Shown in pieces: positions 1 to 26,734 of a stretch of 64,000 nucleotides of DNA. The stretch spans positions 288,001-352,000 of the forward strand of contig CAXBMO010000003.1 of assembly GCA_963977015.1 (NCBI GenBank). The letters run 5' to 3'. Below the pieces are notes generated by a model that saw only the letters and a list, made by a program, of their open reading frames with translations, ran no database searches and was not told where the DNA came from. Each line of letters begins with the position of its first letter. Position 1 is the stretch's first letter. Source of the DNA: an uncultured bacterium. GTDB lineage: Bacteria; Verrucomicrobiota; Verrucomicrobiia; Verrucomicrobiales; DEV007. A program made the translations under genes and the position numbers.

Positions 1-3000
1 ATATCCTGCTGGGTTATTTCCCAGGTAGCGTCCTGTTTCGGAGTGCCTCCTGAGTTGTTGACTTCAAATCCGCCTTCACCATCCCACGGAGTAGTGGCAA
101 AGTTATGGTCCGTGCCATGTTGAAACTCATAGTGATCCGGATGTATGCCCCCCACGCCGTCCTTCAACTGCACGATGTCGGCATAAAACGAATCGGAAGC
201 GCCGTCTTCTCCATCCCACCTCACATAAAGCTGATATGTCCCAGGGGTCGTAACGGTCAGGTCATATTCGATGGTCGGATCATTGGTCGGTCCTCCGGCA
301 CTGCCACTCCCATCAGCGAGCAGTTGAACATATTCTCCTCCCCTGGCATTGCTCATCAGCACAGTGCCTTCCGCGTTCAGGTCTAGTCCGGTTGGCGCTA
401 CCTTCCACTCCGTTCCGTCCGTTGCAGTAGTGGTTCTCGCCGAATCATCTTCTCCTTCCACCACGGAAATTCCACCGGTGACGTTTCCGTTGAAAGTGAC
501 ATTCCCAACGCCCGCGTTCATCGAGAGACTCTGGCCGGCAGCATCGCCCGCCACGATCCCCTCAAAAATCACATCACTCCCGCTCGCCGAGGTATCCACG
601 ATAACATCCCCGCCGACCACGACCGTGGCGTCAAAGGTGACAACGCCACCCGCCCTAATATTGTGGTCCAGATCCACCCGCCCGATGTCAAAAGTCACGT
701 CGGCCGTAAGATCCAGATCAGTGGAAATCACGACCCGGTCGTCAGACGCTCCCAAAATCGTCAGCAGGCCCGAAGGCTTCGCGATCGTGGTGGACTCACC
801 CGCGGTCGAATCGATCGTGAGCGTGTTGTCAACGTTTTCGGTTACGGTAATGACCTCACTTTCCGATGACGTAAACTCAAGCGTCACATCTCCGGTGGGG
901 TTGATCGATTCAATCGGTTCGAGCCCCGTGTAGGTGATCGTCGACGTGCCGTTGAGCAGGATGGAGCCGTCGTTTTCGCTGGTGTAAGTGTAAACCGCGG
1001 AAGCGAACGAACCGTTCTCAATCACCAATTGGTCGCCCATCCCGCCATTGTCGCCTTGACCGTTGACCTCGATATCCACGTTCAACAGCGCAGCATTGGA
1101 ATAGTCGATCGTGAAAGTGTCGTTGCCAGTGCCTCCATTGTCGCCATTGATGACCAGCTTGTCGACTGCGTCGAGCGGCCGCGAATCGACCACGACGTTG
1201 TTCTGGAGAACCTGTACGGTCGATTCCACGATCCGGACCTGGAACTGGGTGTCACCGTTCGGGCCCTGGACCGTGGTCGGGGTCGAATCATTCGTGTCGA
1301 TGAAGGAAATGGTGACGTCGTTGCCGTCCCCGCCAAAATAGGAGATGAAAGCGTCGATCGTCCCCGAGGAGAGCGCGTCGATCCGGGTTCCGTCGGCGAG
1401 CCCCGCGAACGTGCCGGAAACTGCGTTGGTTCCCTGATTGTCGATCAGGGTCAACTGGCTTCCGTGCGAACTGCTGAACCCGCTCAGAGTCGCCAGCGAG
1501 AGAGAGACGTTGGTCAGGACCACGTCGCCGGTCACTTCCACCAGATCATTCGCGCCGCTTTCGACCTCCAGGCTCAGATCGCCGCTGTTGCTGCCTGAAG
1601 TCGAGTCAAAAACTAGATCCCCGTTGATCCGCAGAGTCGCCGTGGCCCCGGACCCGCCCACTTCGACCTCGCCCAGGTTGACGTCCACGTTTCCGGTCAC
1701 CGTGCCCGAACCGGCCAGGACGTCGCCACCGGCCATGGACAAGCCATTGCTGACGGTGAGGGTCCCCCCGCTGATCGTGATGTCGCCGACTGAAGCCGCG
1801 TCCGAATCCAGGATGGTGACGGCCTCTCCGGCCACATCCAGCGTTCCATTGAAACTGAATCCCGTACTGGAGCCGTCGCCGAGGCTCAGGGTTCCCGTCG
1901 CGGTGATCGCCGCGGTGGTCGAGGTGCCCGCGATCGGAGCGTTGATGACGCCGCTGCCCGCCAGGGTCGCGCCGGTCCCGATCGTCAGGGTGTCCGCCGG
2001 CCCGCCATTGCCGATCTCTCCATTCACCACCAGCATCCCGTCCTCAATGTCCGTGGTCCCGAGATAGGTGTTCGTACCGGAGAGGGTCAACGTGCCAGTG
2101 CCGTCTTTCACCAGGGAAACCGACCCGTTGATTTCACCCACGTAGGTGGTGTTCGTCGACTGGTCGATTGTCAACGTCGCGGCCGTTGCCGAGGTGATTT
2201 GAGAACCCGAGTCATTTGGTGTGGTGGCATCCGTGTATAATCTCGCGATCGTCTGGGCAAAACCGTTCAGGTTCAGGGTGCCGCCGCTGCTGCCGAAGTG
2301 ACGGAACGTGGCGTTGGTAGGAAGAGCGTTGGCCACTCCGAGGCTCAGAGTCCCGTTTTTCAAGAAGGTGGTGCCCCATGTGTTGCCGTCCACGCCTAGA
2401 ACGGTAAGTCCGTTCGAGTCCGTGTAGAATTGACCGCTGCTCCCGATGTCGATCGGATTGGTGGTGAACTCGATCGAGCCGCCGGAGGCATTGATGACAA
2501 AGAACGTATTGGTGCCGGTGATGCCTCCGGTGAAGGTGAGACTGCCACCGTCGGATTTCACCCGAATGTTCCCGGGAAGCGACACCTCTCCGCTGATGAC
2601 GTTGTCTCCGCTAACATTGCGCAAAGCGTTGTTCAAACCACTGCCGGTGAAGCTGATGGCATCCGCCACCGTGATGCTTCCACTCAGGTCGAGCCGAGCA
2701 TTGTTAGCTTTGTTGACGGTAGTCCCGCCTGCGGTGGAACCGAGAGCGTTGCTGTGAGAGATCGCCAGCACTCCGTCATCCACCAGGGTGTCTCCTTGGT
2801 AACTGTTATCTCCGGAAAATGCCAGAGTTCCCGATCCCGTCTTGGTGATCCCTCCGGTTCCGGCAATCGCGCCTCCAAAATTCCCGCTACTCAATGTCAG
2901 CGTCGTCGGTGTGTTGTGAACTCCATCCACCCCGCCCAGCTCGACCGTCACATTCGACCCGCCGGTCAAGGAACCGATGCTACTGTCGCCCTCGATGAAT

Positions 3001-6000
3001 TTGACGATGACGGAGTCGGTAAAGCTGCTCAGATCAAGGTCTTCGGCGCTGTAGTCGCCCTGATTCACGATGAGGGTGAGGGGTTCGTCGGTCGCGGCTG
3101 CGGCCAGAGCATCGGCAATCGTCTCAAACCGCGTTCCTGGCTGCTCCCCGGCGATCTCGTCGTCCACATCAGGAACGTCTGTTGCGAAACTACCAGGGAC
3201 CCGGAGAAATGTGATACCGTCGGCGATCACATAGCCGTTTGCCCCATTCGATATCGTTACCTTCCCCGCATTTCCGGGGGAGAATTCGAATTCTCCCAAG
3301 AAAAGATCTCCCCCCGTTGTCTGATCGACTGATCGATCGTGGGAACCGTTCATATCGACAATGGTGACCGGAGTAGTCGATGCACGATCCGCCCTTGCAG
3401 CCCATTGTATCGACACTTCGTAGGTTCCTCCCAAAAGTTCCGGCCTAAACTCCACCGATTTACTACCCTTGTCCGTATTGCCATCGTGGAGATAGCTGCT
3501 TCCCTGATAGCCAGGCGCCGATGTGCTTTGTGCCCAACTCCCTGTCAGGGTAATCGCAGCATTCCCGGAGTGGTCCTCGCTGTCCAGGACAATCTCTTCG
3601 GCAACAAAATCAGGATTGACGTAAAAAACCTGTCCGTAGGTCAGAACGACATCGTTCCCGTCTCCGCCCGCATAACTGATGTCGTAGTCGATCCCATCTA
3701 CGCTGACGGTACCCCCTTCTGCGATGACGTTACCGAGGCTGTCTTTGAAGAATCCGGTCGTCGTGCCGGAGGTATTGTTGATCAGGGTATAGGCATGGGC
3801 GCCAGTTGGCACCATAGCCAGCGATGCCACGTCCAGTGTCGCCACTCCCGCACCCAGATCCACATCACCCGAGACATTGACGACATCGTTTCCTGCTCCG
3901 GCGAGCATGGTGCCATCTCCATGGATCTGGACTTGAAAGGCGGAACCAGGAGCGAACGTCAGGGCCCCTACATCGAGGCTTTCGACAGGCGATGCCGCGT
4001 TCCCGGGCGACAGCGTGCCGCGAATCGTGACGGCCCCATCCGTGGAGCCGGTTCCGCTCAATGTGGATGTCTCGCCGATGAAATAGTCGCCTGCATTGGT
4101 GTGGGTTCCGTCGAGGATCAAAGTAGGACTGTCCTGAACGATGCCAGCCCAGACGTTGTCCAACTGTCCTTCAAAAGGACTCGAAGATCTGGAGCCACCT
4201 GCTCCGAATGCAATGAAATAGTCCAAATCTCCAGTGGCTCCATCAAAGTTCAGAGTGCCGCCCTGCTGAACACCGCCGACGAAGACTTCGTAGGTCTTGG
4301 CGGTATGATCGATGAGCAGTTCGATGTGATGCCATTCGTTGATATCCACTCCCGTTGCCAGGGTGACCAATCCCGTTCCGCTGTCTCCCGCGACCAAATT
4401 CACCTTGTCATCACCTGCTGCTGCGTCTTTTACGAAGCCGACATAGGCCCGCATATCGGAGAGACTCCTTGGTTGTGCCCCATTATTTCCGACATCCTCC
4501 ACTCGCCCGTCGATCCTTTCAGTCACTCCGTAATACCACTCACCACCATCATGAGTGACTCGAGCATCGAACGTCACGACTCCGGAGGAATTCTCCCCGA
4601 TTGCAGCGTCCTCCAGGTTTCGGTGTATTCCCCGATACGCTGTGCTTGCTCCGATTGTCGTTGAATTCAATCCGCCGTCATACCCGAAAGTCATGAAATT
4701 CCCGTCACTGTCGGACGCGACGGCCACTCTTCCTGTCGTATTTCGATTCCACACCGTATCCGCGCCCGCATTGCCCGTCGAATACGACTCAAAATCATCG
4801 GAAATGCTAACGAGACCGACCGTGGTCTCCTGGACATAACTATTGTCCCCCGCGAACGTCACGGAATGGTCTCCGACGATTTTTACGGCATCCGTCACGA
4901 CGCTGCCAACGTGCGAAATATCGCCGCCCACGACGATGTCTCCGGTATCCGCATCGAAGACCAACCCCGTGTTTTGATCGGTGCGATGGATCAACCTGGT
5001 ATTGATCGTCTGAGTATCGGTCGAATTATTGACGACAACTGCGGAAGCCGCGTCTCCTCCCTCTCCCAACATATCGAAGTAGGCCGGGCCATTGATCGTG
5101 AATGCGCCCGCTCCCGCCGCGAATTCCAGGCTGTCCGCATTCCAACCCGCAGCCGCTCCCGCCTGATCCATGGTAACGGTCGTATTGGCGGTTCCATCAA
5201 AGACAAAAGTATGGAAGCTCCCATCATCCAAGGGAACCACATCGCCATCCCAGTTTTCCTTGGTCGACCAATTTCCATCCGCGCCACCGCCATCCCAGGT
5301 ACCGATAAGGGTCGCGTAGTGAACTCCTTCCAAACTCCCCGCAATCGCCCCTTCCGCCTGCCCGTCCGAGATAAGCCGGCGTTCCCCGGTCTCGAAAAAG
5401 GCATACATGATGCCTTGTGAGGAGGAACCGTAGACATCGCTTAAGCCCAGGATGTGCCCCTGCTCGTGCAGCAATACACTGAGCAAATCCACACGGTCGT
5501 TCGCCGCAGAATCGATATCCGCGATCATCTGGGTGCTCCCGAGGCTCGCCGAGATGTATTCTTCGTCGTCCAACGGCGTTTCGTCGAGAAACCAGGTTCG
5601 ACCTGCTGCGTCAAGGTCGATCGTGATGATACTATTCTCCGCCGAGCCGAGATAATTCCCGGGCAGATCCACCACCTGGTAAACCACGTTGGCCAGCGCG
5701 AGTGATTGTTCCTCGGTCAGTCCGGTCATGCGCCATCGCTCCGCCGCCGCCTCAGCCATCCAGTTCACCATATCCGGGTTCAGGTCAGATTCCGGTGCTT
5801 CAGCCGAATACTGGCCCCATTCATCGACCTCCAGTAGGCTTTCGCCAATCACTTCCATCGGAGCCTCTCCCTCCACGCTCGGCGCTGCATCAAAGACCTC
5901 GCTCTCGTCCGTCAACAGGTAGACCTCGGTATCAAGCACCGACTCCGGCGCGGCATCGAACGCTTCCTGCGCCTCGATCTGGGACTCCGCAGATGGTTGC

Positions 6001-6206
6001 CCACTTTGCGAAGCCAACAAGGGTGCCTCGTGGGCTGGTTCGGAACCCAATTCTGCATCGGGAGTACATCCCCCATCAACCGGCGCGGCCGAGTAGAGAA
6101 TCCGTGGCTCGAGGTTCTCGAGAAGCATCCTGCTGCCTACCGGCTTTTCCGAGTCCGGTTTGTTACGGCCAAAGTGGCGTTCGAGGAAGTTCGGTTTCTT
6201 TTTCAT
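1..6206 (-). CDS. Giant LEPR-XLL-family surface/secreted repeat protein, copy B (>2068 aa, 3' end outside the window)
   Basis: ATG at 6206. Hand translation gives MKKKPNFLERHFG...LLENLEPRILYSAAP...HEQGHILGLSD...GIMY, paralogous to the head of 6962..26212. The same frame is still sense at the window edge (..WDGEGGFEVNNSGGTPKQDATWEITQQD). It contains autotransporter-associated beta-strand repeats and CBM-like inserts. It is absent from the ORF track, consistent with having no stop codon in the window. Confidence 0.93.
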   Translation of the reverse strand, partial: MKKKPNFLERHFGRNKPDSEKPVGSRMLLENLEPRILYSAAPVDGGCTPDAELGSEPAHEAPLLASQSGQPSAESQIEAQEAFDAAPESVLDTEVYLLTDESEVFDAAPSVEGEAPMEVIGESLLEVDEWGQYSAEAPESDLNPDMVNWMAEAAAERWRMTGLTEEQSLALANVVYQVVDLPGNYLGSAENSIITIDLDAAGRTWFLDETPLDDEEYISASLGSTQMIADIDSAANDRVDLLSVLLHEQGHILGLSDVYGSSSQGIMYAFFETGERRLISDGQAEGAIAGSLEGVHYATLIGTWDGGGADGNWSTKENWDGDVVPLDDGSFHTFVFDGTANTTVTMDQAGAAAGWNADSLEFAAGAGAFTINGPAYFDMLGEGGDAASAVVVNNSTDTQTINTRLIHRTDQNTGLVFDADTGDIVVGGDISHVGSVVTDAVKIVGDHSVTFAGDNSYVQETTVGLVSISDDFESYSTGNAGADTVWNRNTTGRVAVASDSDGNFMTFGYDGGLNSTTIGASTAYRGIHRNLEDAAIGENSSGVVTFDARVTHDGGEWYYGVTERIDGRVEDVGNNGAQPRSLSDMRAYVGFVKDAAAGDDKVNLVAGDSGTGLVTLATGVDINEWHHIELLIDHTAKTYEVFVGGVQQGGTLNFDGATGDLDYFIAFGAGGSRSSSPFEGQLDNVWAGIVQDSPTLILDGTHTNAGDYFIGETSTLSGTGSTDGAVTIRGTLSPGNAASPVESLDVGALTFAPGSAFQVQIHGDGTMLAGAGNDVVNVSGDVDLGAGVATLDVASLAMVPTGAHAYTLINNTSGTTTGFFKDSLGNVIAEGGTVSVDGIDYDISYAGGDGNDVVLTYGQVFYVNPDFVAEEIVLDSEDHSGNAAITLTGSWAQSTSAPGYQGSSYLHDGNTDKGSKSVEFRPELLGGTYEVSIQWAARADRASTTPVTIVDMNGSHDRSVDQTTGGDLFLGEFEFSPGNAGKVTISNGANGYVIADGITFLRVPGSFATDVPDVDDEIAGEQPGTRFETIADALAAAATDEPLTLIVNQGDYSAEDLDLSSFTDSVIVKFIEGDSSIGSLTGGSNVTVELGGVDGVHNTPTTLTLSSGNFGGAIAGTGGITKTGSGTLAFSGDNSYQGDTLVDDGVLAISHSNALGSTAGGTTVNKANNARLDLSGSITVADAISFTGSGLNNALRNVSGDNVISGEVSLPGNIRVKSDGGSLTFTGGITGTNTFFVINASGGSIEFTTNPIDIGSSGQFYTDSNGLTVLGVDGNTWGTTFLKNGTLSLGVANALPTNATFRHFGSSGGTLNLNGFAQTIARLYTDATTPNDSGSQITSATAATLTIDQSTNTTYVGEINGSVSLVKDGTGTLTLSGTNTYLGTTDIEDGMLVVNGEIGNGGPADTLTIGTGATLAGSGVINAPIAGTSTTAAITATGTLSLGDGSSTGFSFNGTLDVAGEAVTILDSDAASVGDITISGGTLTVSNGLSMAGGDVLAGSGTVTGNVDVNLGEVEVGGSGATATLRINGDLVFDSTSGSNSGDLSLEVESGANDLVEVTGDVVLTNVSLSLATLSGFSSSHGSQLTLIDNQGTNAVSGTFAGLADGTRIDALSSGTIDAFISYFGGDGNDVTISFIDTNDSTPTTVQGPNGDTQFQVRIVESTVQVLQNNVVVDSRPLDAVDKLVINGDNGGTGNDTFTIDYSNAALLNVDIEVNGQGDNGGMGDQLVIENGSFASAVYTYTSENDGSILLNGTSTITYTGLEPIESINPTGDVTLEFTSSESEVITVTENVDNTLTIDSTAGESTTIAKPSGLLTILGASDDRVVISTDLDLTADVTFDIGRVDLDHNIRAGGVVTFDATVVVGGDVIVDTSASGSDVIFEGIVAGDAAGQSLSMNAGVGNVTFNGNVTGGISVVEGEDDSARTTTATDGTEWKVAPTGLDLNAEGTVLMSNARGGEYVQLLADGSGSAGGPTNDPTIEYDLTVTTPGTYQLYVRWDGEDGASDSFYADIVQLKDGVGGIHPDHYEFQHGTDHNFATTPWDGEGGFEVNNSGGTPKQDATWEITQQD

Positions 6207-6224: not shown

Positions 6225-6734
6225 TCAATCGCCGGAGTTGGAGAGGGAATTGAAAGGAACAATCCAGATTGGGTCGGATTGTCTGACACAAAAAAAGCCT
6301 GCATTTAGCTGAAGAGCACCTGGCAGGCTGTTCGCGGGAACTAACGGGTTTTGATGAGACACAAGTGGACGAAGGGGGGAGGTTCTCTCCCACGGCCAGG
6401 ATTTACCCCCGAAAAGCAGGGAGTAACGCCGCAGTAGTCCGAAGAGAGTTCGCCCGATGGTATTGGCCCGCCGGAAGGTCTGACTGCAAATTGCCGAAAC
6501 CCGCCTTTCCCAAATGCGCAACTGTGCGCCGTCCAATTGGAGCAGCCACGAGAAAAAACAGACCGGTCGCCACAAAACCGCCGACAGCACTGTTGACTCG
6601 CGTTCCGGGGGAGCACTCGAGGTCAACACGTCAGACTGTTCCGTAACCGAGTCTTCGTCCAAAAACGTGACACGTTCCGGCACAGAGGCTACGGAAAGGA
6701 TCCAAGTTGGTAGATGTTCGCAAGAAATAACCAT
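6225..6734 (-). CDS. Uncharacterised leader ORF, copy B (169 aa; first 110 aa conserved)
   Basis: About 59/110 ungapped identities (hand count) to 26231..26734. Many changes are synonymous third-position ones, e.g. APPERE = GCT CCC CCG GAA CGC GAG vs GCG CCT CCT GAG CGT GAG. Confidence 0.65.
   Translation of the reverse strand: MVISCEHLPTWILSVASVPERVTFLDEDSVTEQSDVLTSSAPPERESTVLSAVLWRPVCFFSWLLQLDGAQLRIWERRVSAICSQTFRRANTIGRTLFGLLRRYSLLFGGKSWPWERTSPLRPLVSHQNPLVPANSLPGALQLNAGFFCVRQSDPIWIVPFNSLSNSGD
6290..6329 (-). terminator. Intrinsic-terminator-like hairpin inside leader ORF B
   Basis: Minus strand reads AGCCTGC-20 nt-GCAGGCT then TTTTTT, ~85 nt before the giant gene ATG. Conserved in copy A. 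Confidence 0.6.
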
Positions 6735-6961: not shown

Positions 6962-9900
6962 TCAGAGTTTTTGCTCCAGCTGAAGGATGGCGTCTTCGGG
7001 AATGGTGGCGTCGATGATCAATCCGTAGATATCTCCCAGGGTCAGCTCTTCCTCCGTGCTCAATCCCGGAATCAAGCCACCTCGGAAACTTCCGGCCCGG
7101 AAGATGGACGAACTCCCTCCTTCCATCGCGAATATCGGCGAGACTTCCTGAATCGTAATGCTGTAGACGCGGTCTTCCAACGTCACCCCGGACAGGGATG
7201 CCGACCAGTTGCCCGCCGCATCGGCTTGAACGGTCGTCGTGTAACTGAAACCACCAGCTCCATCGCTGATCGTCACGACAATCTGAGCGCCCACCGCTGA
7301 GGTGCCGGCGAAGAACGGCGTCAGCGAGAATGCCGGCGGCAAGGACGGCAACACGCTGGATTCCCCACTCCGGATCGTTGACGGATCGATCACGACACCA
7401 TCCGGATTGATCAATTGTCCGTTCAGGAACTGATAGGCGGAGGTGCCATCCAGCACCTCATCGAGCCGCACCCCGGCAAAGACGCCGGAGTCGCCAAAGC
7501 TGTTCAGAAGGCTCTGTAGATTGCTCAATTCTCCAGACGCACCTTCTTTCCCGGCTGGAGTGGTCCCTGCAGTTGGCGGAGGGGTGCCCTCGGCTTCGAC
7601 TGCGGACGCCGGTTTGGCTTTGCCTTCCTGGATCACCGAAACCTGCAGGGCATTGCTTCGGTCGGTGCCGTCCTGAACCTCGACCACGAACCACCTCGTT
7701 CCCGGTGTCGGATCGCTCAGATCCTTGTTGCTGTAGGCAACCGCTCGTAACGCCTGTTCCATGGCCTTGGCCGAAACGCCGCCCGGTCCCGCCGAAATGG
7801 TCAGGGTGCCCGAGCTTCGATCGAACCTCTGGCTCAATCCGGCCGGCAAGACGATCGCAGAAAGGCGGTCCTCGTCCGGCTGATAGCCGCCGTGAATCTG
7901 AATCGTGGCTGAGGTCACCAAGTTGGCCTGCGTAACCTGAATGTTGGAAAAAAGAGCAATCGGTCCCTGCCCCACTCCATGGACCAGGCTGTCACTGATG
8001 CTGACGCCAAGCAGGACCGGTACCAGATTGTCGGACTCGATCCCCGTGAAGTGGACCGGCTGCAAAGCCGGATTGGCCGTCGGGAAGGTATAGGTCCCCT
8101 TGCCGGTTCCGGTGGAAGCAAGTTGAGGGTTGGGGCCGAGCACCACCAGCGCGTCACCGGGCAACGTCGTCGGATCGTGCCCGTGGACGGTGATCTCTGT
8201 CGTCTCGCTTGGTTGAATGCGGAAGACGTCCTCATCCTGGCCGCCGTTGATGACAGCTGCACTCGCATCGATCCGGCCGAGGAAATTGACGACCACCCCG
8301 GTTCCATCCGCCACTCCCGGATCCAGATTCACCTCAACGGCTCCGGCCGCATTCAGGACGGCCCTCACATCGAAGGTGAAATTCCCCGACGCATTCAGCG
8401 TCATGCCGCCCGTGGTCGAGGTAACGATGACGTCCGCAGCGATGTTCAGATCGCCGCTCGTGGCCGTCGCCGCCAAATCGCCGCCAACCGTGGAATCTCG
8501 CAAGTCGATCCCCGTGGCGTTGACGATCGTGGCCGTGCCCGAGGCGTTCAATGCGATGGAACCCGTCACATCCAGTTGGTCCAGGATGATGTCCGCGGAA
8601 CCGCTGGTCGTGGTCAAATCCGCGGTCCCGCCGATGCTGATGAAGCCCGCACCAATGTCGGTAATGGAGCCGGTGTTGGTGTCGATCGCCAGATTCCCGG
8701 TTGTGGTCAGGACCGCCAACGTCACGGCGCCATCGGCGTCAATGTCGATGTCACCACTTCCCGCATCGATCACAGCAGACGCAGCCATGCTCACGGAGCC
8801 ACCGGCCGCCGCCGCATTCAGCGTCACGCCGCTCGCGGTCAGGTTCTCATTCACCACGATGGTCTGAGCATTGATGACGGCCTCACCAGTCAGCGTCAAT
8901 TCACTGGCGATGGTGACGGATCCCACGGCGAACGTTGGCGTCGCGCTGGCCGCGTTAACGATCAGTCCGCCGGTTACCTTGGCCGTTGCAACCCGGACCG
9001 TAGAGGCATTCGGGCGCATGATATCAGAGCGTTCGATGCCAGTGGTCGAAAAGACACGCGAGCTGTCGCTGTCGCTGATTTCGTAGTATTCGGTGCTATC
9101 GATCGTCACTCTGGAGATCGTCAGATCATCCGAGGAATCACTGCCGATGTCGCTGATGACGAGGTTTCCGCTCCCATCGATGGCGACATTCGCGTCCGCC
9201 ACACCGCCAAACAGCACCACGTCGTTCCCATCGCCGCCCACGTAGCTGATGGTGAACTTCTCACCGCCCGTCGCGGTGACGGTGGCGCTTTCAGCCAGAT
9301 TTCTGAACATACCAGTTACCGCGTCGGCGGTCCCGTCGTTATCCACGATGACGTAGGACGCTCCGGCAACCGGTCCGCTGGTGACCGTGACCTCCAGCGT
9401 TGGGCTCAGCAATTCGCCAACTGCGCGTTGCAGGACCAGATGGCCTTCCGGTGTGAGTATTTCCACATTGTGGCCGGTCCAGCTGCCGATAAAAATCCGG
9501 TCTCCACCAGCCACCCGTCCGTCTGCGCCAAGGGCGTCGCCCGCATTCCAACGGGCCGCGATGATGTGTCCGCCTGAACCACCGGTGGCGAGAATCTTTC
9601 CGTCGCCAACCCCTGCACTAACGATGGCATCGTAGTTGGAGTTGTAGAGATCAGCTGGAGTTGCCACCCCTTCAAAGAGCGGATCGCTCCGGCCAGAGGT
9701 AGTGACAGCGGTTTCGTTACCTGCCGCAGATAGGTTCGAGGCAAGTCCGCCGGTGTCCACCCAATCCCAGCGACTGCTTCGCGCGAGAAAAGAACTCATC
9801 AGAATTGTCGGCGTTTCCAGGGTTTCCCAAAACGCGGTTTCGGCCTCGCTATTCGTGTAGTCACCGCTGTTCGTGGCTCGGCTCACGATAACGAGATCCG

Positions 9901-12900
9901 CCGCTTCAAGAATATCTTGTTCCGCTTGGCTAAAGGAACTGAACAGCCCCGTCGTGACGTTGGCTCCGAAATTCGTGGTTAGAAAGTCAATCGTATCCTG
10001 ATCCTCTGCCAGTCTATTGGTGACGAGAACCACGTTTGGCGTGAGCTTCAGATCGATCGAACCGGTCACAGCCACTTGGTCATGATGACCCGACCCGTCA
10101 CCCGGCGTGATTCCGTCGATCTCCACCGTGTAGGTTGAACCGGCCCCGAGATTGAGGTCGCCCGTCGCCAAATCACCAAAGGTGATTCCCGGATTCACCG
10201 TGCCCGCTGCGTTGATCGTGGCGTTGGTTATGCCAGTGCCGCCGAGCGTTGCATCGCCTTGAACGGTGATGGTGCCGGGCGTGCCGCTGATCAGTGATCC
10301 GTTGAGGAGGAAGGTTCCTTCTGCGATGACCGTCGGTGCGTCGTAGGTGTTGGCGCCGGTCAGGTCCAGGGTCCCCTCACCGGCCTTCGTGTATCCTCCG
10401 GTCCCGGAAAGGACGCCAGCTACGGTGATGGTTTGGCTCGCCTCCGCATCAAAGACCTGATTATTGGCTCCCGTCACGGAAATCGACACATCGCTCTCGA
10501 TGGAAAGATCGCTACCCGCCAGGTTCGCGATGGTGCCGCCGGTCCAGTTGAAGGTCACCGCCGTGCCGTCGCCGGCGTCGATCGTGGTCGCCTCCAATCT
10601 GCCTGCCGCCAAGTTGTAGATCGCGGTCGCGTCGCCCGCCTGCTCGTCGGCCAGGATCAAGGTTCCGACCGTAAGGGTGCCGCCGTTTTGATTCAGCGTC
10701 CCCGTGCCGAGGTGGTCGGTTCCCACCTCGGAGGTTCTGCCCACGCTCAGGCTGGTCGCGTCGAGGGTTCCGGCCTCAAAGGTGAGGATCCCGATTCCAC
10801 CAGCTCGATTTGTCGCATCGCCAAGGAAGACTTCATCAAGCAACGCGTCCACCGTGCCGCCGGTCAAATCCAGCGTCCCGGTATTCGCGGTATTCTGGGT
10901 GCCACCCATTCCCACGATCAGATCTGCCCGACCCGTTCCGGCTAGGTCACGGATCGTCAAGACGGGGGCGGTGAGTCCGCTCTGGAAAGAAATCTCAGAT
11001 TGTCCTCCATTCGCATTCCCGGCGGCGGATGGCAGATTGCCTCCGAGGGTGATGGTGTCGGCATGGATGAACGTAGTCTCTCCTAGCTTCATGGTAGGAG
11101 TGCTGTTCCAGCCCCCCAGGGAGACCGCGTCCGCCGTGATGGTGGAGGTCGCCGCCAAGATCAGATCCGCGTCGTCTCTTCCTCCGGGGCTCAGGTAAAA
11201 GGTTCCCGTCGTCGTCGCCTCGAACTCGTTCAATCCCGTGAGATCGAGCGTATAATTTCGGCGTTCGTTTCCGAACTGGGAATCAACGATTCCGATACTG
11301 ATATCCGTCGAACCGCTGTTAACGACAAACTTCCCGCCCGTCATCGTCAAGGTCGCGGCGGTCGTGGTGGAATCGGAATGGGTTCCCGAGTCCACGATGC
11401 CATTGATAAATCCGCCCGTCGTGAGCGTCGCCGCTGACGCGATATTCGTGGTATTGCCAATCACCGTGCCGGTGATGTCGAACCGGTAGTTCAACTGCGC
11501 GAGCGTCTGGTCGGAATTCACGTTCAACTCCGTATCGAACGCCGTGCCGCCCGCGCGGCCGATCGAAAGCGTGTTCGTCGCAGCCAACGTATTGCCCGCG
11601 GTCGCATCCAGCGTCAGGGTCCCATTGGTCAGCAAGATCTCGCCGTCGAAGGTGTTCTGGGCCGTGAAAATCAACTCGCCGCCGTCATGCTTCTCCAACA
11701 CGCCACTCCCACTGATCACTCCATTGATCGTCATGGTGGTGCCCCCCCGGACGTCGATTCGTCCACCAGAGGCCGTCACCGTAACACCGCGGTTGGCAAC
11801 CAGATCGACCGAAGGACCATTGTTCTTCAGGATCCCGCCGTTGAGCGTGATGTTGGCCCCGTCGAAAGCGCCGGGAACCGCGCCCAGCGAGCCGTCCGCC
11901 TGAATTCGAATTGTTCCCTGTTCGATCACCGTCCCGCCGGTGTAGGTATTGGAAGTCCCCGTTAAATAAAGCAGCGATGATCCCGTCTTGGTCAAACTGC
12001 CGCTCCCAGAGATAACCCCGGAAATTGTGCTATTGGTGGAGTTGCCTACCGTCAGATGGACCGCTGTCCCGTGCTGCCCCAGAACAACGGTGTCACCGCT
12101 GCCCGACTGAAGCGATCCGATCGTGACGGTGGATTCCGTGTTTTCGGAGTCGTTCACCAATTGCAGGGCCACATTCCCAACCGTGGCGTTCAAATCGACC
12201 GCGTCGGAGCTGTAGTCGCCGCCATTGACGATGATGGTTCCCGAATTGGAACCGAGCGCGTTGACCGCGGCTTGAATCGAGCCAAATGCTGTATAACCAA
12301 CAACCGCGTCCTCCGCCGTCCCGGTCGTTTCCAAATCTCCATCGACTACAATCCCGTCGCCCAGACTGCTCCATTGATCGTTCACGTAGACGATCGTGGG
12401 GCTCGCCTTGACCAACATGACATCGTTCCCGTCACCGCCGTTGTAGACGATTTCGTAATCCACACCACCCACATCCACGATGGCCCCACTCACGTTGGCA
12501 TTGGTGAACACTCCGCTGAGCGTGTCGGCATTGTCAATCAGGTCGATTAACAGATAGACGTCCCGGTCTGGCGACACGCCGGTCACGGTCAGCGTTCCGC
12601 CAAGGGTCGCATTTCCGTCCACCTGGAGCACGTCGGTGATCGCGTCGATGATATCGACTTCCAAATCCCCCGAGCTTGTCGTTAAATCGCCCGCGATTTC
12701 CATCGTGCCGGTGGCGGCATCTCCCCCAATCTGAAGATCCCCTCCCGTCTGGGTGTAGGCGCGGTTGAACTCGCCCACATCTTCAAGTCTTCCGCTGGTG
12801 AAGGTAAAGGTCCCAATCGGGTTGGCCAGGGTGCCGATGTCGTTCCCTCCCAGACTCAGAGTGGCTCCCTTCAAATCTATCACAGCGTTTTGGGTGCCGA

Positions 12901-15900
12901 TCCCGGCAGCGTCCACCGTAATATCGCCGCCGACGTTCACCTCTCCTCCAATGAGGTTAAGGGTGCCGCTCGAAACGCTGTCAACACTGCCGGTTGCGCT
13001 GGCCAGGCTAATCCCACCGGTCACGTTGACCGTTCCGCCGGACACATTGATCGTTGCGGTGGCCCCCCCGTTCGCTGAGGTTGCCGAGCTCGAATTGAGG
13101 CCCATCGCAATGGCCCCGAACGTCGCCGTCCCTCCCTCAAGGTTCAGGATCGAGGTAACCTGCCCGGACACATTGCTGCCCTTGCGGTTGGACATCGTCA
13201 GGCTGGTGACGTCGAGGCTCCCTTGGTTGAAGGAAAGCGTCGCCGTCGTACCTCCCGAACCGCGATCACGGCCCCCAATGATCAGGTCGTCGATCAGCAA
13301 ATCCGCGCCGTGATCGAGGAAATCGACCGTTCCCGTCGGGCTTCCACTCGTTCCCGTCGTTCCATTGGCAATCTGCAAATCGGCGCGAGAACTGCCACCC
13401 GCGGCCCCCCGGATCGTGACCGATCCACTGCTTGTCCCAAAATCAAGGGTTCCACTGGACCGCGTTCCCGTGTAGTCCCCCGGTCCCACCAAGATGGTAT
13501 TCGCGTTGAGGGTGTTCTCGATCGAACCAAGGTGCAGCCTCTGCATCGCAACCCCACCCGTGTGCGCACCCACGCTAATGGTAGCGGCAGTGACCGTGCT
13601 GGTATCAGCGAGAATGAGTGTCGATGCCGCTCCTCCGCCGGAATTGCCGGCAAAGCCGACGCGCAACGTGCCGCTGGAACCCAGGTCGATATCCGCGCTG
13701 GCCAGGTCGCTCATGTCCACCGTGGCGCCTCCGTAGTTCGAACCGGTGGCACCGCCCAACTGAAACAAGGAAGAGCCATTGCCGTTGACGTCCAGGCTAC
13801 CTTCCCCGGTGAACAGGACATTCGTCGTGGAGCCACCGGCGATATTCGGCCCGAAAATCACATCAACGGGCGTGGTGCCGTCGCCCACGGTCAACGTCTT
13901 GCCCGCCCCAATCGTGACGACGTTATGAAGCGGCGAGTGCGTGAAAAAATAGAGATTCGAAACGGCGGCGCTAAACGCTGATAGGTCCAGGGCTCCCACG
14001 GTGGTCGTTGCAGGCGAGCTGGCGTCACTTGAACCGAAGTAGAGATCTCCGGAACCGATCCCGGTGTCCGATCCGGCGACCACGGTTCCGTCAACAATCA
14101 CGGTCGTTCCGCTGTAGGAGTTGTCTCCGCTCAGGGTGAGCGTGCCCGCCCCGACTTTCTCAAGCGAAACCACGCCCATCCCGACTCCATCCTCGATCTT
14201 CCCGGTGATGTTCACGTTGCCAGCACCCTGATTCGGAGCGCCAATCGTTAAGGTGACGGGTCCGGCGGTTCCGTTCACGATATCTCCCGAGATCGTCCCG
14301 TTGGTGGTCTGGATTCCCAAGATGGTGTCGCCCAACAACGTGATCTGCCCGGAAAGACTGCCGTTGAGACGGATGGCTCCCCGAGTCTCGGTATTTCCGC
14401 TGCCGGAAACCTCGATCTTGCTCACGATCGTGCCGCTCGAGAAAAGCTGAGTTCCCTCGTTAATCCGGATCGTGGCGCTGGCGTCGAGACCAGGGTTGCC
14501 GCTGAGTTTGTTGCCGGTCGGGCTTCCGTCGGTTTCCAACTCCAGCAATCCGGTGAATCCGGAATTGGCCCCCAAAAGGCTGGTGTTGCCCGATGCGCCG
14601 GAAAGAGTCACCAGGATGCGACCGTCTCCGCTAAACGCATTATCAAAATCGTTGATCCCGTCGCTGAGCAAATGGAGCGTCGCGTCGGTTGAAACGGAGG
14701 CGGTCCCCGGAAGCGCGGAAGGTTGGGTCACTTCAAGCGTGCCTGTCTCGATGACGCTGGTGTCGCCGGAGTAGGTGTTGTCCTGGCTCAACGTCCAGGT
14801 ACCACTACCAGCCTTCACCAGATTCCCTTCGCCGCTGACGATGCCTTGGGCCTCACCAGTTCCGGTGTTCGTAATGGTGAGGGTGTGAGTGCCGGTATCG
14901 ACCGTTGAGGTGAAGTTGACGTCTTCACCGGTCAAGATGTAGTCGCCTCCCATCGTCACCGCGTGGTTCACCGTTACATCACCAGTGGTCGCGGTGGCAG
15001 TGAACGCGCCGCCGATGGAACTGGTGGATTTCAGGTCAATTGACGTGGCATTGACCACGGTGGCGTCGCCATTGGTTTCAACCCCAATCTCACCTGTCAC
15101 GGCAAGGGTGTTGGTTCCTCCCAGTTCGATCACCGATTCGTGCGAATACCCAACCTGGAAAATCGCAAGCATTTCCTCCAGTTGTTCATCGGTGAGCAAT
15201 CCATCGTGGAAGCTGGCAAAATCGAGTTGCCCCTCGAAGCTGTCCAGGCTTCCAATCCCGCTTGAACCATCGCCTCCAATCCGAAAGTCGGTGGCATTAC
15301 TCAGCCCGTCGGTTCCCGATGCGCTACCGGTGAGAGCCGGCCCGTCTGCGATCGTGCCGTCTTTGGTCGTGACAAAGGACTCCAATGACTTGTCCGTATG
15401 ATCGTAGCGCAATGTTATAAGGTACCAGTCGCCAGCTGTTAGCGGTTCACTTCCGCCAAACGTTCCGCCCGGCGATGTCAGCTGCCCCTGAAGGTTGCCA
15501 CTCACATTCTGATACCGAAAACGGTTCGACCCTAACAGGGTATCATAGCCATAGTTCGGGTTGGTTCGCATTTGAGCGACTGAAAAGGTGAAACTTCCTC
15601 CGGAGTAGACACTGTTCGGAATGCTCAGAACATTTTGAGAATTGTCGAATTGAGCCACGTTCCCATCTGCCAATTCGCTGGGAGTCCATCCATTGCCACT
15701 ATCAGTCGCCGTAACAAACGTCGGGAGAGATGACCCGGCAGCCGACAAGGTGTAACCGTTGCCGTACTTATCAGCCAGCGGATCGGAACCATCAAAATCC
15801 CAAACCGCTGTCAGAGCCGATAAATCACCGGCTCCTCCTGTCGCTTGAAAATTGGCCATCCCGGCTACGGAAACGGTTCCCCCTTCATTGGTGATGTTTC

Positions 15901-18900
15901 CACTCGTCGCGGTTACGTCGAGATCCCCTCCGATGTCAGTGGATGAAAAGTCGATTGTCCCAGTATTGACGATCAGTGCGTTGCCACCGGAACCTGTGGT
16001 GTTGAGTCCAATCGAGCCACTCACCGCCAATTGATCGAGCTCCAGATCCGCATCCACCTGAGTTGAGGCGAATTGGGCACCTCCCGTTACGGCAACGGTG
16101 CCCGAATCGGTAATGCTACCATTGGCACGAGCGGAGAGATCGCCTCCGATCGTGCTGGCGCCGAGCGCAAGATCTCCGTTGTTCGTCACCGAAGCGTTGC
16201 CTGCGGATGTCAACGAGAGCAGGTCTCCAAAAACCACTGCGTTCGTGCCGCCGAGATCGATGCTTGTGCCGATTAAACTGGCGAGTCCCGTTGCCGTCAC
16301 CGTTCCTGCGGTATTGGAAATCGCACCACTAGCGACAACATCGAGTTCGGACACATTGCTGGTCTTGAAGTCGATCGCTCCGACGCTGTTGATCGTCGCA
16401 CTTCCCGTCGTCAGGCCAAGCGCACCACCTACTTCAAGAGTGTTGCCGTCCCCTCCAAGGTTCACCGCCGCAACATTCCCGTTACCCGTGGTGAACTTGC
16501 TGAACATCTGCTGCACTTCGGAGTCGTCGAGCGCCTCATTGTGGAACGCGATAAAATCCAACTCTCCCCTCCAACCATCGAATCCGCCGATTCCGCTAAT
16601 TCCGTCTCCTCCGATGCGGAATTTTTCGATCGGATTGGTTGCCAGCCAGGTTTCCATGAGAACGGGCTCTCCGGCAATTCCCGTATTCGTGCTAACAAAT
16701 ACTTCGATCAAACCGGTCGCCTTGGTATAACGCATCGTGGTGAGATACCAATCATTATCGGTGTAGATGCCACTAACCACATCGTCGCCGTCGGAAGGTG
16801 ACTGGGTCCGAAGTCGCAGGCTGCCACTGTGGTTGAGCAAAGCTAAATCGTCCGAGGCCAGCATCACCCTCCAAGTACCGGTATTGGAACGCCCGGCGAT
16901 CGTGAATGTGAAATCATCACCGGTGTAGGCACTCGCGGGGATGTCCAAATAGTCATTCCCATTAAACGTTGCTGAGTTCCCGAGATTCGTAGGAGCCCAG
17001 CCGTTTCCACTGGCCGAAACGGCCCCAATCACGGGACGCTGGTCCGTTGTACCCGATTGAGTAAGGTCGTTTCCGTTGCTGGACTTGTCGGCAAGCGGAG
17101 TTCCACCCTCGAAATCCCAGAAGCCGCCCACATTTGCCAGAGAGGGCAGTTGATTCACGATTCCTCCTCTTCCTGGATCTACCGTGGTCGCGTTAAAGTC
17201 AGCCATTCCGCCGACAGTGAGTGCGCCTCCCGTGTTTGTGATGTCACCTATCGTCGCTGTGGCATTGAGGTCACCGCCAATCGTCGTCGTGGCGAAATCA
17301 ATCCCCGTCGCATTCTCCAAGGAAGCGTCACCACTGGTCACCAGAGCGATTTTGCCACTCACATCTGCTCCCGGCAGCGAGATCGTGCCCGTTCCGGCAT
17401 CGATATCGAGATTGCCGGTCGTCTTCACCGTTCCGGCGAGATTCACCGCGCCGTCCGCGTCGATCTCGATGGTTCCCGAACCGGAATCGAGCGTCGCAGT
17501 CGCCAACTGTGTCACCGTTCCACCGGTCGCACTCAAGGTGAAGCCCGTTGCCGTGATGTCGGCATTCAGGTTGATCGTTTCGGCGTTGACCGAAAGCAAA
17601 CCGCTGAAGCTTGAAGCGCTGGAACCACTGAAGGTGACCATGTCCGCCCCACCGTTGGCGTTGATCGTGACGTTGGCAAAGTTGCCCACTCCCAAATCGC
17701 CAATCGCAATCGCATCCACGTCTCCGGACCCTTGGATGTCCAGATCCGGGGTATTTCCCAGCACGGTTGCGGAGACGGTCCGCAAGAGGGTGCCGTTCAC
17801 CTGGATTTCCAGATCGCCGGAGGCGTTCAAAGCCACGGAAACCGTGTCCACCGTTCCGTCGTCGCCCGGGGCGCGATTGGCAAACGTATCCGGCATCGAC
17901 AGCCGCGTATCGATCTCGATCGCGCCTTCACCGGTCACCGTGATCCGCACCGTGGCGGTTCTTTCCTCTCCGGAACTGTCTTCCATGGTGTAGGTGAAGG
18001 TGTCCTCCACCGTTTCACCGTCGGCCAGGGCCTGGAGCGCGGCTGCACTGGTCGCGTCATAGCTGAAAATGCCTCCGCCGGTATGGCTCACCGCGGCACC
18101 CAACTCGCTCAACCCGGTCAACGTGGTTGACCCGTTCAGTTCGACCACGGTTTTGGTATCACCCGAATCCGCATCGGTGTCGTTGGCCAGCACGTCGATG
18201 TCGATCGCTGCGGCGTCTTCCGTCGTCGCCGCGGTGTCGTCCACCACAACCGGCGCATCGTTGGTTCCCGTGATCGTGATGGTCACGGTATGCTCGTCGA
18301 CCCCTCCCTGACTGTCATTTGCCTCTACGGTGTATTCCAGGGTTAACACCTCCCCATCCGAGAGATGGTCAAACCGTTCGCTGTTGCTGTTGAACGTCCA
18401 GGTAATCTGCCCGGAAGTGGCACTGCCATTGACCGGAGCCGCAGGCGCCACTGTCAGCATCGCCTCCAAGTCCCCATTGGAAACCGGCGTCTGGCCGTTT
18501 GCCACGGTCACGCCGGTTACCTCCGCCGACACCGTGTCGGTGAAGTCTGGATCAGACACGGTCAGCGTGTCGCTTGCCGACAGCGTCCCATTTCCTTCCG
18601 TCAACGCCGCTGAATCCGCGTCACCGGAAGCGGTTTCCACCGTGATCTGAGGAACATCGTTGGTCCCATTGACCGTGATCGTCAGCGTTGATTCGGATTC
18701 GGGGGCAACCGTCGGAATGAAGTTCAACAACAGACCGCTGAGCGGCGTTTCCCGATCGGAAGCCGCAGTGCCGTCGAACAGAATAATTACATCATTGGTT
18801 CCATCGGCCACGAAGCTGAACTGCGCTGCGGTGGACTCGACATCGGCATCAGTAAGGCCATTCACTCCGCCGAATGCCACATTTGCATTGCCAGTCTGGC

Positions 18901-21900
18901 CGGTATTCACCAATCCGTTGCCGTCTCCATTATCCACCAAGACCTGAATCGCTTCGCTTTGCGTATGCTGGGCGTCCGCATGATAGGAGGTCACTTCGTA
19001 GGTTCCGGCCGGCAATTCGCCCAAGGTCACTCGAATGATCCCGCTGCTGTTCTTGACAAAATCTTCAGCCAGTTTGGCTAGGTCACTGGTTAAGTTGCTG
19101 TCCCCTCGATCCCTCCAGTCGACACTCCCTGCATCGTTCCCGATCGCGTTTGTGTCTTCGATCGACAACGTGAAGCTCAACCCATTCGCAGTCGTATAGG
19201 CACGGTCAACAAAACCTTCATTCCCGGCAAAATTGGCTCCACCTTCCACGGAAATCGCGCCGTCGGCGGTCCTTCCTCCATCGGCCTGAATATCGATCAG
19301 GATCTGTTGCGCCTGTTCATTTGCGCTCCCGTAGGTAAACACATCGGACACGCTTTGCCCCGTTGCCAGGTGGTCCGTGGCTTCTTGGTCCGGCACGTAG
19401 GTGTAGGAGCCATCCGGACGAATCGTCAATCTTCCGTATTGACCGTCCACGATCGTTTCGCCATCGACGGTGCCTCCGCCATTGGTCCCCAGCGGAGAGC
19501 CGCCACCGGAATATTCAATGGTTACCACGGCAACATCGTCATTGAAATCGGCATCGACATCCGTTCCGCCGTTGGTGGTACCGGTTCCCGTGAGCACATT
19601 GCCTTCGGCGTTTTCGGCGGGCGTCGAGTTGCCATCCCCTCCCGCTTCGGTGGCCTCGTCCGTATCGGCCGTTGCCACGGGAACATCGTTGGTTCCGGTG
19701 ATCGTGATGGTCACCGTCTCGGAATCACTGAGCGGAGCCGCGGCGTCATCGGTCGCGGTGAGGGTATAGGTCAGGACCAAGCTTTGACCTTCGGGCAGGT
19801 AGTCGAACGCTTGTGAACCGCTGTCAAAGGTCCAGTTCAGCGTCTTGGTCGTTTCCGATCCGCTCAACCATTGTCCTGGCGTCGCGGGGTCTACCGAAAA
19901 CATGGCCAGAAGCTCGGCGTCGCTGGGCCGGGAAGGATCAGCAGGATCGTCACCGCTTACCGCAAGCGACACGGCTCCGGTCACGATGTCGGATTGATCC
20001 GGGTCGGTTACCGTCAACGAACCGCTGGTCGAAAGCCCAGCGTTGGTCTCGGTTAGTTCCGCGGAATCGGGTCCGCCGGTAATTTCCGGCGCGTCATTCG
20101 ATCCCTGAACCATGACCGTCAGCGTGGATGCAGACACCGCGTTCACATCCGGAAGGTAAAACAACTGAAGCCCGTTGAGCGGCGTCTCAGCCTTATTCGT
20201 CCCCTCGGTTCCATCAAACCGAATGATCACATCATTGGTCCCGTCCGCGGTAAAGGTGAAATGTGCCGCCGTTGCCGCCAAATTTTCCTCGGACAATCCA
20301 GAAACCCCCGGAGCCGAAAGGCCGGCTGTTCCACGCTGACCGGTATCCACCAGTCCGCTGCCGTCTCCATTATTCACCAAGACCTTGATCGTATCGCTCT
20401 GCTCAAACTGGGGATCCCGATGATAGGAAGTCGCAAGGTAGGTTCCCGCAGGAAGAGTACCGAGCGTCACTTCAATGATGCCATGATTGTTCTTGATGAA
20501 ATCCTCGCCCAAATCCACCGGTGAATCCGCGCTACCATCAGCTCTTCGGTCTCGCCAATCGACGGATCCCGTTCCCGCTGCATCGATCGCGACGGAAAAC
20601 GCCTGGCCGGTTTGAGAGATGAAGGACTGCTCGCTCAAGTTTCCGCTGGTGTTTCGAGCATATCCGTTGATCGAGATCGCGTTGGTCGCCGTTTGTCCGC
20701 CGTTGGGTTCAATATCCAGCAACGCGAATTCCTCGGGCGTTTCGTTGGCGATCCGGTAGGTGAACTCATCCGTGGCAAATTCGTCCTCAGCCAGAGTGTC
20801 CGACGTATTGTCGTCCAGCGTGTAAACATAGGAACCATTCGGTTGAATCGTCAGGAAACCGTACTGCCCGTCCACGACCGTCTCGCCGCTCATCTGGCCG
20901 CCAGAGTTGCCTCCCACCGGCGTGCCACCACCTGAGTACTGTGCGCTAACCACCAGAACGCTGCCGTCGTCCGCGGACGGGTCGTCGTCGGTATCGACAT
21001 CGAAGTCCGTTCCTCCATTCGTCGTTCCGACACCCGTGATCACGTTCCCCTCCGCATTAACTGCGGCGATGCCGTTGGATTCTCCCCCGGCTTCCACCGA
21101 TTCGTCGGTATCGGCATGAGCCTCGGGCGCGTCGTTGGTGCCGTTGATCGTGATCGTGACGGTATGCTCTCCGAAACCGGTATCGTCATCCGTGGCGCGA
21201 ATTGTGTAGGCGAGCATCAGCGATTCCCCATCCGCCAGGTGATCGAATGCTTCGCTGCCGCTGCTGAAATCCCAATCGATCGTGCCAACTCCGCTCGCGT
21301 CGAGCGTTAACGAATCAGATGAGAAGCCGAGCATTCCCTGCAAGGTAGCGTCGGCAATCCCATTGGCATCCCCGGTTACGAGAACCGATTCGACGGTGAG
21401 ATCTTCCGTGTCCAGCACGCCTGCATCCGTGACCGTTAGCGTTCCCGAAGCCGAAATCCCGGCGTCGGTCTCGCTAAGCGTTTCCGCATTCGAATCGCCC
21501 GTCCCCACCGAAATGACCGGCGCTGCATTCGATACGGTGGTGGTTACGGAAACGGTCTGGCTGAAAATGTTTTCCGTCGGAATCGTGGCTCCACCAAACA
21601 ACTGTCCCACTTCGTCGCCCGAAAGCGCGCGGCTCCAGATCCCGATATCGTCCATCAGACCATTGATCGCGTCTGCAGTACTTTTTCCCAAGAGTTGAAG
21701 CACATCGGTATTCGAAAGGCCATTCCCGTGACGATAGGTCTGCGAATGGTTGAGACTACCATCGATGTATTCCGAACTGGTGCCGTTATCGAGGACGTAG
21801 GTGACGTGGTGCCAATTTCCATCGAGCACCGCCCCTCCTCGGTTGTAATTCAGATTCTGGTTGTGATCCCCCGTCACGTCGTCATTGGGAAAGGTATCAA

Positions 21901-26230: not shown

Positions 26231-26734
26231 TCAATCGCTGGAGTCGGAAAGGGAGGGAGTAAAAAGTCCGGTTTGATTTTCGGACACAAAAAGAGCCTGC
26301 TCGAAGCTGGGATGCGGATGGCAGGCTCTTGGCGGAACCCTGCGGTTCCGAATGAGAGAAAAATTCAAGGAATTGATCGTTCTTCTCCGGCGGCCAAGAT
26401 TCCCTCCAAAAAGCCAAGAGTAATCCCGCAACAATCCGGAGATAAATCGTCCGATCGCATCAGCCCGCCGGAAGGCCTGACTGAAAATCGCCGAAATCAG
26501 CTTTTGCGTGATGCGCAACCGCCCATTCTCAAATTGGGGCAGCCACGAGTAAAAGCAGACCGTTTTCCCGACACCTGACAACATGGTCGTTTTCTCACGC
26601 TCAGGAGGCGCTTCCGAGGTTGCAACTTCCGGCAGGGCAGCCACCGAGTCTTCGTCCACAAAAATGACGCGTTCCGGCTCGCTAACACCGCAAATCACCC
26701 AGGTTGTAAGTTGTATCGAGGAGGTTACCATCAT
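26231..26734 (-). CDS. Uncharacterised leader ORF, copy A (167 aa)
   Basis: Paralog of 6225..6734: PERV.F.DEDSV, APPERE, VCF.SWL, SQ.FRRA..IGR, GLLR.YS.LFGG. Its TGA lies 18 nt before the giant-gene ATG, as in copy B. Confidence 0.65.
   Translation of the reverse strand: MMVTSSIQLTTWVICGVSEPERVIFVDEDSVAALPEVATSEAPPEREKTTMLSGVGKTVCFYSWLPQFENGRLRITQKLISAIFSQAFRRADAIGRFISGLLRDYSWLFGGNLGRRRRTINSLNFSLIRNRRVPPRACHPHPSFEQALFVSENQTGLFTPSLSDSSD
26288..26330 (-). terminator. Intrinsic-terminator-like hairpin inside leader ORF A
   Basis: Minus strand reads AAGAGCCTGC-20 nt-GCAGGCTCTT then TTTGTGTC. The stem is conserved with copy B while the loop has diverged. Confidence 0.6.

Follow-up and report, generated by a model that had tools for sequence, protein, structure and literature searches.

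Leader genes under coding selection precede LEPR-XLL giant genes in an uncultured Verrucomicrobiales bacterium and may act as translation-coupled attenuators

Analysis of the window, a stretch of 64,000 nucleotides from the genome of an uncultured bacterium of the Verrucomicrobiales (contig CAXBMO010000003.1), revealed two small open reading frames on the minus strand, designated leaders A and B, each situated directly in front of a giant gene. Judged by their codon patterns, both are real, unnamed small protein-coding genes, and the leader ORFs are almost certainly translated. They belong to an unannotated family which resembles known attenuators without passing the tests that define any one of the named families. 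Some regulatory role in cis is very likely for the leader, and on balance we lean towards a translation-coupled attenuator that would gate the transcription of the giant gene, with the nascent peptide setting the progress of the ribosome.

An initial annotation had placed leader genes at 6225..6734 and 26231..26734, and both were found there, on the minus strand, encoding 169 (A) and 167 (B) amino acids. Giant gene A (1..6206, minus strand) encodes 6811 aa in the genome and leaves the window, with the LEPR-XLL element at residues 28-44; giant gene B (6962..26212, minus strand) encodes 6416 aa and also has a LEPR-XLL head. Both carry an M10-like metalloprotease motif, both start 18 nt past the stop codon of their own leader, and the giant N-termini pass the cut-off of NCBIfam model NF012209 for LEPR-XLL (22 vs 17 bits). 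The end of giant B is separated from leader A by 227 nt, and a stock scan found no terminator in this gap. Positions 1-26734 of the window form the first part of an array (G000:C3:247233-314734) of four giants of 6416, 6811, 8526 and 4990 aa, situated head to tail and each with its own leader, B and A being the first two. Immediately upstream of leader B a response-regulator-like gene (27116-27772), a tRNA gene (28119-28191) and a receiver-domain-like gene (28265-28819) are located, all on the minus strand and with protein labels given by eye; the array may be under two-component control.

When Met1 of A was placed opposite Met2 of B, 59 of 110 residues were the same (53.6%), in agreement with the roughly 54% previously counted by hand for a gapless alignment of codons 1-110. 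The gapless alignment covers about 112 codons, and BLASTP of A against B gave 61/118 identical residues (E 1e-38). The reported synonymous codon use was found again: five of the six codons of the word APPERE are synonymous variants according to the codon list, and the pair CTA CTG against TTG TTG was located at codons 100-101. For the antisense frame sharing third positions, in which a TAA had been noted in A, the recount added a TGA in A and found three stops in B, and all other frames of the aligned region are interrupted by stops. The dN/dS ratio, proposed initially as a check, was 0.46 over codons 1-112 (Nei-Gojobori), thus below 1, compared with 0.89 +/- 0.22 in column shuffles (n=2000; P 0.0065, or 0.022 for the best of six frames). 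This pairwise signal is uneven, with 0.30 for codons 1-50 and 0.63 for codons 51-112; the giant heads gave 0.19-0.28 where in register. In a subfamily of four copies (A-D), third positions vary more than the other two in each of the four quarters of the 110-codon core (p 0.002-0.009). Together with the shuffles, this bore out the coding-type selection claimed for the pair.

The selected core comprises codons 1-110 in A (6405-6734) and extends to 26402 in B, and is followed by a frame-free tail. In the tails of A-D the excess of third-position changes is gone (p 0.21), codon periodicity stopping at LFGG. A 1-nt indel just past LFGG puts the tails of A and B in different frames, with the DNA similarity carrying on, which suggests a border between a protein-selected and an RNA-selected part. 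Indel length modulo 3 was uninformative for this division (13/36 in the core vs 22/72 in the tail). The DNA identity of A and B is the same in tail and core (0.68 each), as would be expected if the leader were a conserved non-coding DNA or RNA element with a chance open frame. This explanation is highly improbable given the codon periodicity, the spread of synonymous codons and the 26 intact frames described below. The start codons cluster as well: in 16 of 25 copies the tyrosine of the conserved motif is preceded by an in-frame ATG at a distance of 90-112 codons, compared with 1 and 2 in the other frames. Furthermore, no Rfam family matched a leader, a tRNA being the sole match in the window at the gathering threshold.

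A profile search of 56,153 six-frame segments identified ten leader copies in the genome, each directly before a LEPR-XLL giant and none elsewhere. The two-copy family of the initial annotation is therefore larger than supposed, both of its copies being real. The proposed link to a giant gene held for all ten copies, but three of the 13 LEPR giants of the genome (2,334-12,519 aa) have no leader. Run on the three remaining genomes of the genus, which had not contributed to it, the ten-copy profile matched further copies, again always before LEPR heads, bringing the number of intact leaders to 26 in four genomes. These copies are paralogues from related genomes and counts over them are not independent; the profile was built from 17 of them, and nine joined by iteration at E < 5e-3, of which the weakest (L051, L054, L090 and L073) are less certain members. 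Of 58 distinct LEPR heads collected, 26 follow an intact leader and one (L060) a leader interrupted by an N run; for the other 31 the profile detects no leader. Four metagenome loci are 100% identical to the genome and do not represent independent copies.

In the other genera examined, leaders are missing from most giants, and nothing credible was found outside the genus in samples of 134, 301 and 401 genomes, the last searched with one protein as query. A single-protein search of 40 relatives gave no match, relatives being detected by profile only. The profile search of the whole library yielded 15 matches, 11 of them family-like; two (P0009 and P0014) are new and known as proteins without context, and four were dropped as repetitive or low-complexity proteins. 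Weak matches beyond the genus (L018; L109-L114; L128, L129) were likewise dropped, with E values of 2e-4 to 9e-3 and internal stops in five of them; seven of these loci were scanned (L128 and L129 not among them) and contain no LEPR head. The earlier statement that no family is recognisable agrees with the searches for A and B, for which Pfam and NCBIfam gave sub-cut-off matches only. No match was found in Pfam for 17 members, in the PDB sequences, or among viral proteins with copy B as query, and the ESM Atlas gave no relative (best 0.82, TM below 0.4). Gene callers label the leader genes 'hypothetical'. Titles and abstract openings in the literature contain no description of the family that we could find, and the main texts of two arrest-peptide surveys (one of them PMC10987492) show no LFG motif, their supplements being a place where such uORFs may be listed.

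The median pairwise identity among the 26 copies is 19%. The motifs named in the initial annotation (DEDSV, APPERE and FRRA..IGR...GLLR) are present in the four-copy subfamily, while the family-wide ones are Ser-Trp (SW) and YxRLFGG. SW is encoded at 6546..6551 in A (codons 62-63) and 26543..26548 in B, and Y-x-x-L-F-G-G at 6405..6425 in A (codons 104-110) and 26402..26422 in B, all on the minus strand, the indel relative to A following directly in B. Serine is found in 23/26 and tryptophan in 20/26 copies, and in the 19 of 26 copies with a clear SW the word L-T-S-Y-x-R-L-F-G-G sits 37-43 codons after it. The tyrosine position is Y or F in all 26 copies, and the motif glycine is present in 24/26, using all four Gly codons, with the motif leucine written by five codons; this codon usage points to conservation of YxRLFGG at the protein level. 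For 12 close leader pairs dN/dS was 0.18-0.53 in the 10 cases where it was computable, and the third position was the most variable in 12/12. The leaders are 140-200 aa long and run on for 30-75 codons beyond the motif. A hydrophobic targeting segment or signal is lacking, the maximal Kyte-Doolittle 19-mer remaining below 1.6 in 25/26 copies. RAPP/RAGP/RGPP-like words occur in 0/26 and no known arrest motif was found, nor is there a conserved Cys column or a conserved run of control codons in the leader alignments. The possibility that the leader is a copy of the giant head was rejected, no profile match being obtained (hhalign probability 0.1; the alignment began 12 residues before LEPR).

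A peptide conserved in this way could also be a small trans-acting protein, such as a chaperone, export adaptor or membrane-binding partner, which is co-expressed with the giant, the hairpin only setting the ratio of small protein to giant. Purifying selection in all four quarters of the core, as found in A-D, is expected of a trans-acting protein too, and the acidic N-part and basic middle are kept family-wide. Structure prediction of the leader alone, one of the checks initially proposed, was partly informative: an AlphaFold model from 17 sequences contains one confident helix (residues 71-110, ending at the motif), which would suit such a protein, but most of the model is of low confidence (pLDDT 57, pTM 0.30) and, like the identity of 19%, argues against it. 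The motif resembles the end of the MinD membrane-targeting helix, KRLFGG, as given in the part of a preprint available to us (bioRxiv 10.64898/2026.10.05.756812), and 11/26 motif helices lie above the 90th percentile of the proteome for hydrophobic moment. In a post hoc count, the word R-L/I/F-F/L-G occurred in 9 of 53 giant N-termini vs 0.6% of other proteins; only 2/53 exceeded the control 95th percentile with the leader-motif matrix. The likeness to giant N-termini is not supported by the full motif matrix and, like the resemblance to the MinD helix, is a lead only.

If the leader were a dedicated partner, its history should follow that of its giant. No correlation was found between the distances among leaders and those among heads (Mantel 0.0, with two incomplete head sequences), and nearest neighbours agree in 10/26 copies, reflecting recent co-duplication. 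Of three leader clades with good support, two are rejected by the head data (AU p 0.044 and 0.00013; 0.15 for the third). Leaders thus seem to have been exchanged among giants, and the disagreement of the two trees disfavours a dedicated chaperone. Furthermore, with a terminator inside the ORF, a protein required in excess would be encoded by shortened messages lacking a stop codon, and the ten copies are dispersed, none of them alone. On this evidence a trans-acting protein is unlikely. As to the two functions initially suggested, the dedicated chaperone or export partner lost ground, with leaders not tracking their own heads and three of 13 giants leaderless. The regulatory leader gained ground from the in-ORF terminator-like element, the fixed spacings, the frame-free tail and the stop at the giant start.

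In the tail of each ORF a terminator-like hairpin is predicted on the minus strand, with a 7-bp stem, a loosely paired loop of about 20 nt and U7 in A (6290..6329) and a 9-10-bp stem, a large loop and U5 in B (26288..26329); the loops of the two measure 20-26 nt. According to a relaxed rule, a GC-closed hairpin with a U-tract was called in 21/26 leaders, where shuffles predict 1.4; the 31 leaderless giants gave none, the sole control match being the N-broken leader L060. The background of this rule is 111/2923 gene upstream regions (3.8%), 32/1219 coding windows (2.6%) and 3/30 other long genes. A strict rule selected 9/26 leaders, including A and B, vs 2/1015 coding windows. Five leaders fail the relaxed and 17 the strict rule, and both rules were self-made and post hoc, being written after the first copies were seen. 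The stock terminator scan, which accepts loops of 3-8 nt, does not call the hairpin of A or B. Folding was modest relative to shuffles in A (z -1.8, 12/200) and had a z of -4.2 in B. The stem is invariant in A-D without compensatory change, so covariation is silent.

The hairpin begins at 72-119 nt (median 91) from the Tyr codon and at 388-433 nt from the leader start in 12 of 13 measurable copies, and ends 38-129 nt upstream of the giant start. Of 22 copies with a called hairpin, 21 have no stop in the leader frame until the hairpin has been passed (9/22 and 13/22 for the other frames), copy C having a stop codon inside its own hairpin. In 24/26 copies the leader stop falls within -49..+4 nt of the giant start, compared with 7/26 and 8/26 for the other frames; among 25 giants with ATG, six ATGA overlaps and one one-base overlap were found, and fusion of leader and giant was seen in none of 26. 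The observed layout is therefore an ATG about 100 codons before YxRLFGG, a selected core of about 110 codons, and a tail passing through a hairpin about 400 nt from the start.

For the attenuator proposed here, the hairpin and U-tract would act as an intrinsic terminator. A ribosome trailing RNA polymerase through the leader would block the hairpin so that transcription goes on, and the same ribosome would then be handed to the start codon of the giant. If the ribosome slowed or stalled at YxRLFGG or shortly past it, it would become uncoupled and termination could follow; since a ribosome held at this motif is 72-119 nt upstream, too far to cover the hairpin, the giant gene would be off during a stall and on after its release. 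The SW segment lies about 45 residues further back, which the length of the ribosome exit tunnel places just outside, and a factor or a folding event there might relieve the stall. As a guess, the signal could be the availability of the export or membrane-targeting route of the giant. In the parts of the sources available, terminators of E. coli are reported to work within the first 100 bp of an ORF and to be partly suppressed by ribosomes further along (PMC4824070), which would explain the fixed run-up of 400 nt, and a stall upstream of an in-ORF terminator to raise termination (PMC5021804). The distance from terminator to stop codon has been used as a proxy for coupled transcription and translation (PMC7858274, as far as available). 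Applied to the surroundings of 3469 gene ends in the genome, the strict rule predicts 62 terminators, which are thus rare and lie at a median of 35 nt after stops, with 3% within 12 nt. By this proxy, the host appears to couple the two processes.

Another function would be translational coupling, in which the leader brings ribosomes to the giant start and unwinds structure there, the hairpin being a pause, processing or stability element. The clustering of stops and overlaps at the giant start fits this, as does the lack of SD-like words before the 25 giant starts, which are also absent before the leaders. SD-like words are rare throughout the genome (128/1463), so the giants need no special help in this respect. 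Strong terminators do not usually have large hairpin loops, which would favour a role of this kind; against it, 38-129 nt separate the end of the hairpin from the giant start, a U-tract follows the hairpin, and the conserved motifs and their spacing are left unexplained. Such coupling is probably also at work, and as the whole explanation it is quite unlikely.

Less likely again is a pure coupling gate that any ribosome could open, in the style of pyrL or pil1, or RfaH-like antitermination, with the peptide conserved on other grounds, for example to be turned over rapidly. Pairing with an antiterminator was not above shuffles (mean z -0.04), the base stem staying paired in 20/21, and the absence of an antiterminator agrees with a gate of this type. 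The genome also contains a second NusG-family gene (L104, G000:C24:54139-54420), without a giant beside it within 3.3 kb, which we take by eye to be RfaH-like. On the other hand, ops-like 8-mers with one mismatch occur in 5/26 leaders and are scattered, as judged by the E. coli consensus, from which an element of this phylum may differ, and tandem repeats as used in phase variation are absent from A and B, the two copies scanned. A pure gate needs no particular peptide, and the persistence of two spaced motifs at 19% identity suggests that the peptide is a sensor, as in CruR. In the strongest form of the attenuator, which we regard as doubtful, a proline-free nascent-peptide sensor would license genes of 7-38 kb, YxRLFGG stalling or slowing the ribosome until SW or the RLFG helix is engaged by the export route. 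If so, a giant gene would be taken on by the cell only if its product can be shipped, and the leader cassette would be an exchangeable module with ten copies in a genome.

Further elements were seen around the giants. The stock scan found no sigma-70 promoter for A or B. The palindrome TGAC-N6-GTCA precedes 7/26 leaders (L016, L017, L023, L024, L037, L043 and L054) and 0/32 controls, and overlaps the -35 box of a sigma-70-like promoter in five of the seven; it is a possible operator, and it was not seen before the copies of our own genome. AraC-type regulator-like genes, labelled by eye, precede several giants (L009, L010, L047) with or without a leader. The leaderless LEPR giants of the genome are located on G000:C11 near 121733, C12 near 81201 and C2 near 348328, the upstream DNA being AT-rich on C11 and C12, and the gene just before the C11 giant resembles one for a membrane-fusion adaptor. 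Two matches to the Rho RNA-binding domain are present in the genome.

A second ORF family was found before LEPR giants of three other genomes (L062:1762-2334, L061:1758-2381 and L056:1787-2386), with 31-44% identity and third positions the most variable. Each member carries a GC hairpin with a GNRA loop and without U-tract; this family occurs in 3/133 family genomes and has no profile similarity to the leaders. In one other genome, two single ORFs precede giants: L035:1704-2240 shares the word W-x-P-S..Y-G with the second family and contains RAGP, and L050:1968-2381 has an SW motif and no LFG. For the same phylum, a SecA_DEAD/HlyD/M50 locus has been described, the part of that paper available making no mention of such leaders (PMC4452313).

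The leader cassette would represent a concrete and testable checkpoint, being a unit of 500 nt with a defined motif, a defined spacing, a terminator-like element and 26 natural variants. To our knowledge, the means by which bacteria avoid waste on genes of 20-40 kb have been little studied beyond RfaH-type antitermination. If the peptide stalls ribosomes, it would add a proline-free arrest motif with a polarity opposite to that of CruR, and even without stalling the leaders provide an unannotated gene family and a natural series of putative in-ORF terminators.

Among known systems, NF012209 (LEPR-XLL) names the downstream giants only, the leader having no profile similarity to the head region compared, and the leader differs from trp-type attenuators in lacking an antiterminator and a conserved codon run. 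Attenuation of E. coli pyrBI is blocked by the ribosome, its short leader pyrL sensing UTP via polymerase pausing. The leaders, in contrast, are 140-200 aa long, have conserved residues and are repeated before ten genes. Both would have in common an intrinsic terminator inside a leader ORF, a predicted one in our case, and its blockage by a ribosome close behind the polymerase; the pyrBI system is mentioned in PMC4824070 and PMC5021804. The pil1/pil3 system of Streptococcus gallolyticus, from the part of PMC3894217 available, shares a leader ORF before a surface-structure operon and, as predicted for the leaders, translation-driven read-through of a premature terminator without need of an antiterminator; there, slippage in GCAGA repeats does the switching and the peptide sequence is incidental, whereas the leaders have a constitutively open frame across the hairpin and a selected peptide, and A and B are free of tandem repeats. 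The CruR/DUF2946 uORF of Bordetella, as described in the part of PMC9426467 available, is also a long, poorly structured uORF with two motifs at conserved spacing and a proposed control of termination before the next gene. It uses CXXC and RAPP, Rho-dependent termination, stalling that permits expression, and a long intergenic gap, whereas the leaders have SW and YxRLFGG, an intrinsic-type hairpin within the ORF, a predicted opposite polarity, and adjacency of stop and start. SecM, MifM, VemP and ApcA/ApdA/ApdP (PMC7897499, as far as available) resemble the leaders in length, narrow phylogenetic range, a motif late in the ORF and a place upstream of an export-related gene. The gene downstream is Sec/YidC machinery in those systems and the cargo, a LEPR-XLL giant, in ours; moreover, the leaders have no hydrophobic targeting segment (1/26 reaches a KD19 of 1.6) and no RAPP-like motif (0/26), their ORF goes on 30-75 codons past the motif, and their control is predicted at transcription. 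By analogy, the leader would thus be pil1/pyrBI-like in its geometry and CruR/SecM-like in having a selected peptide.
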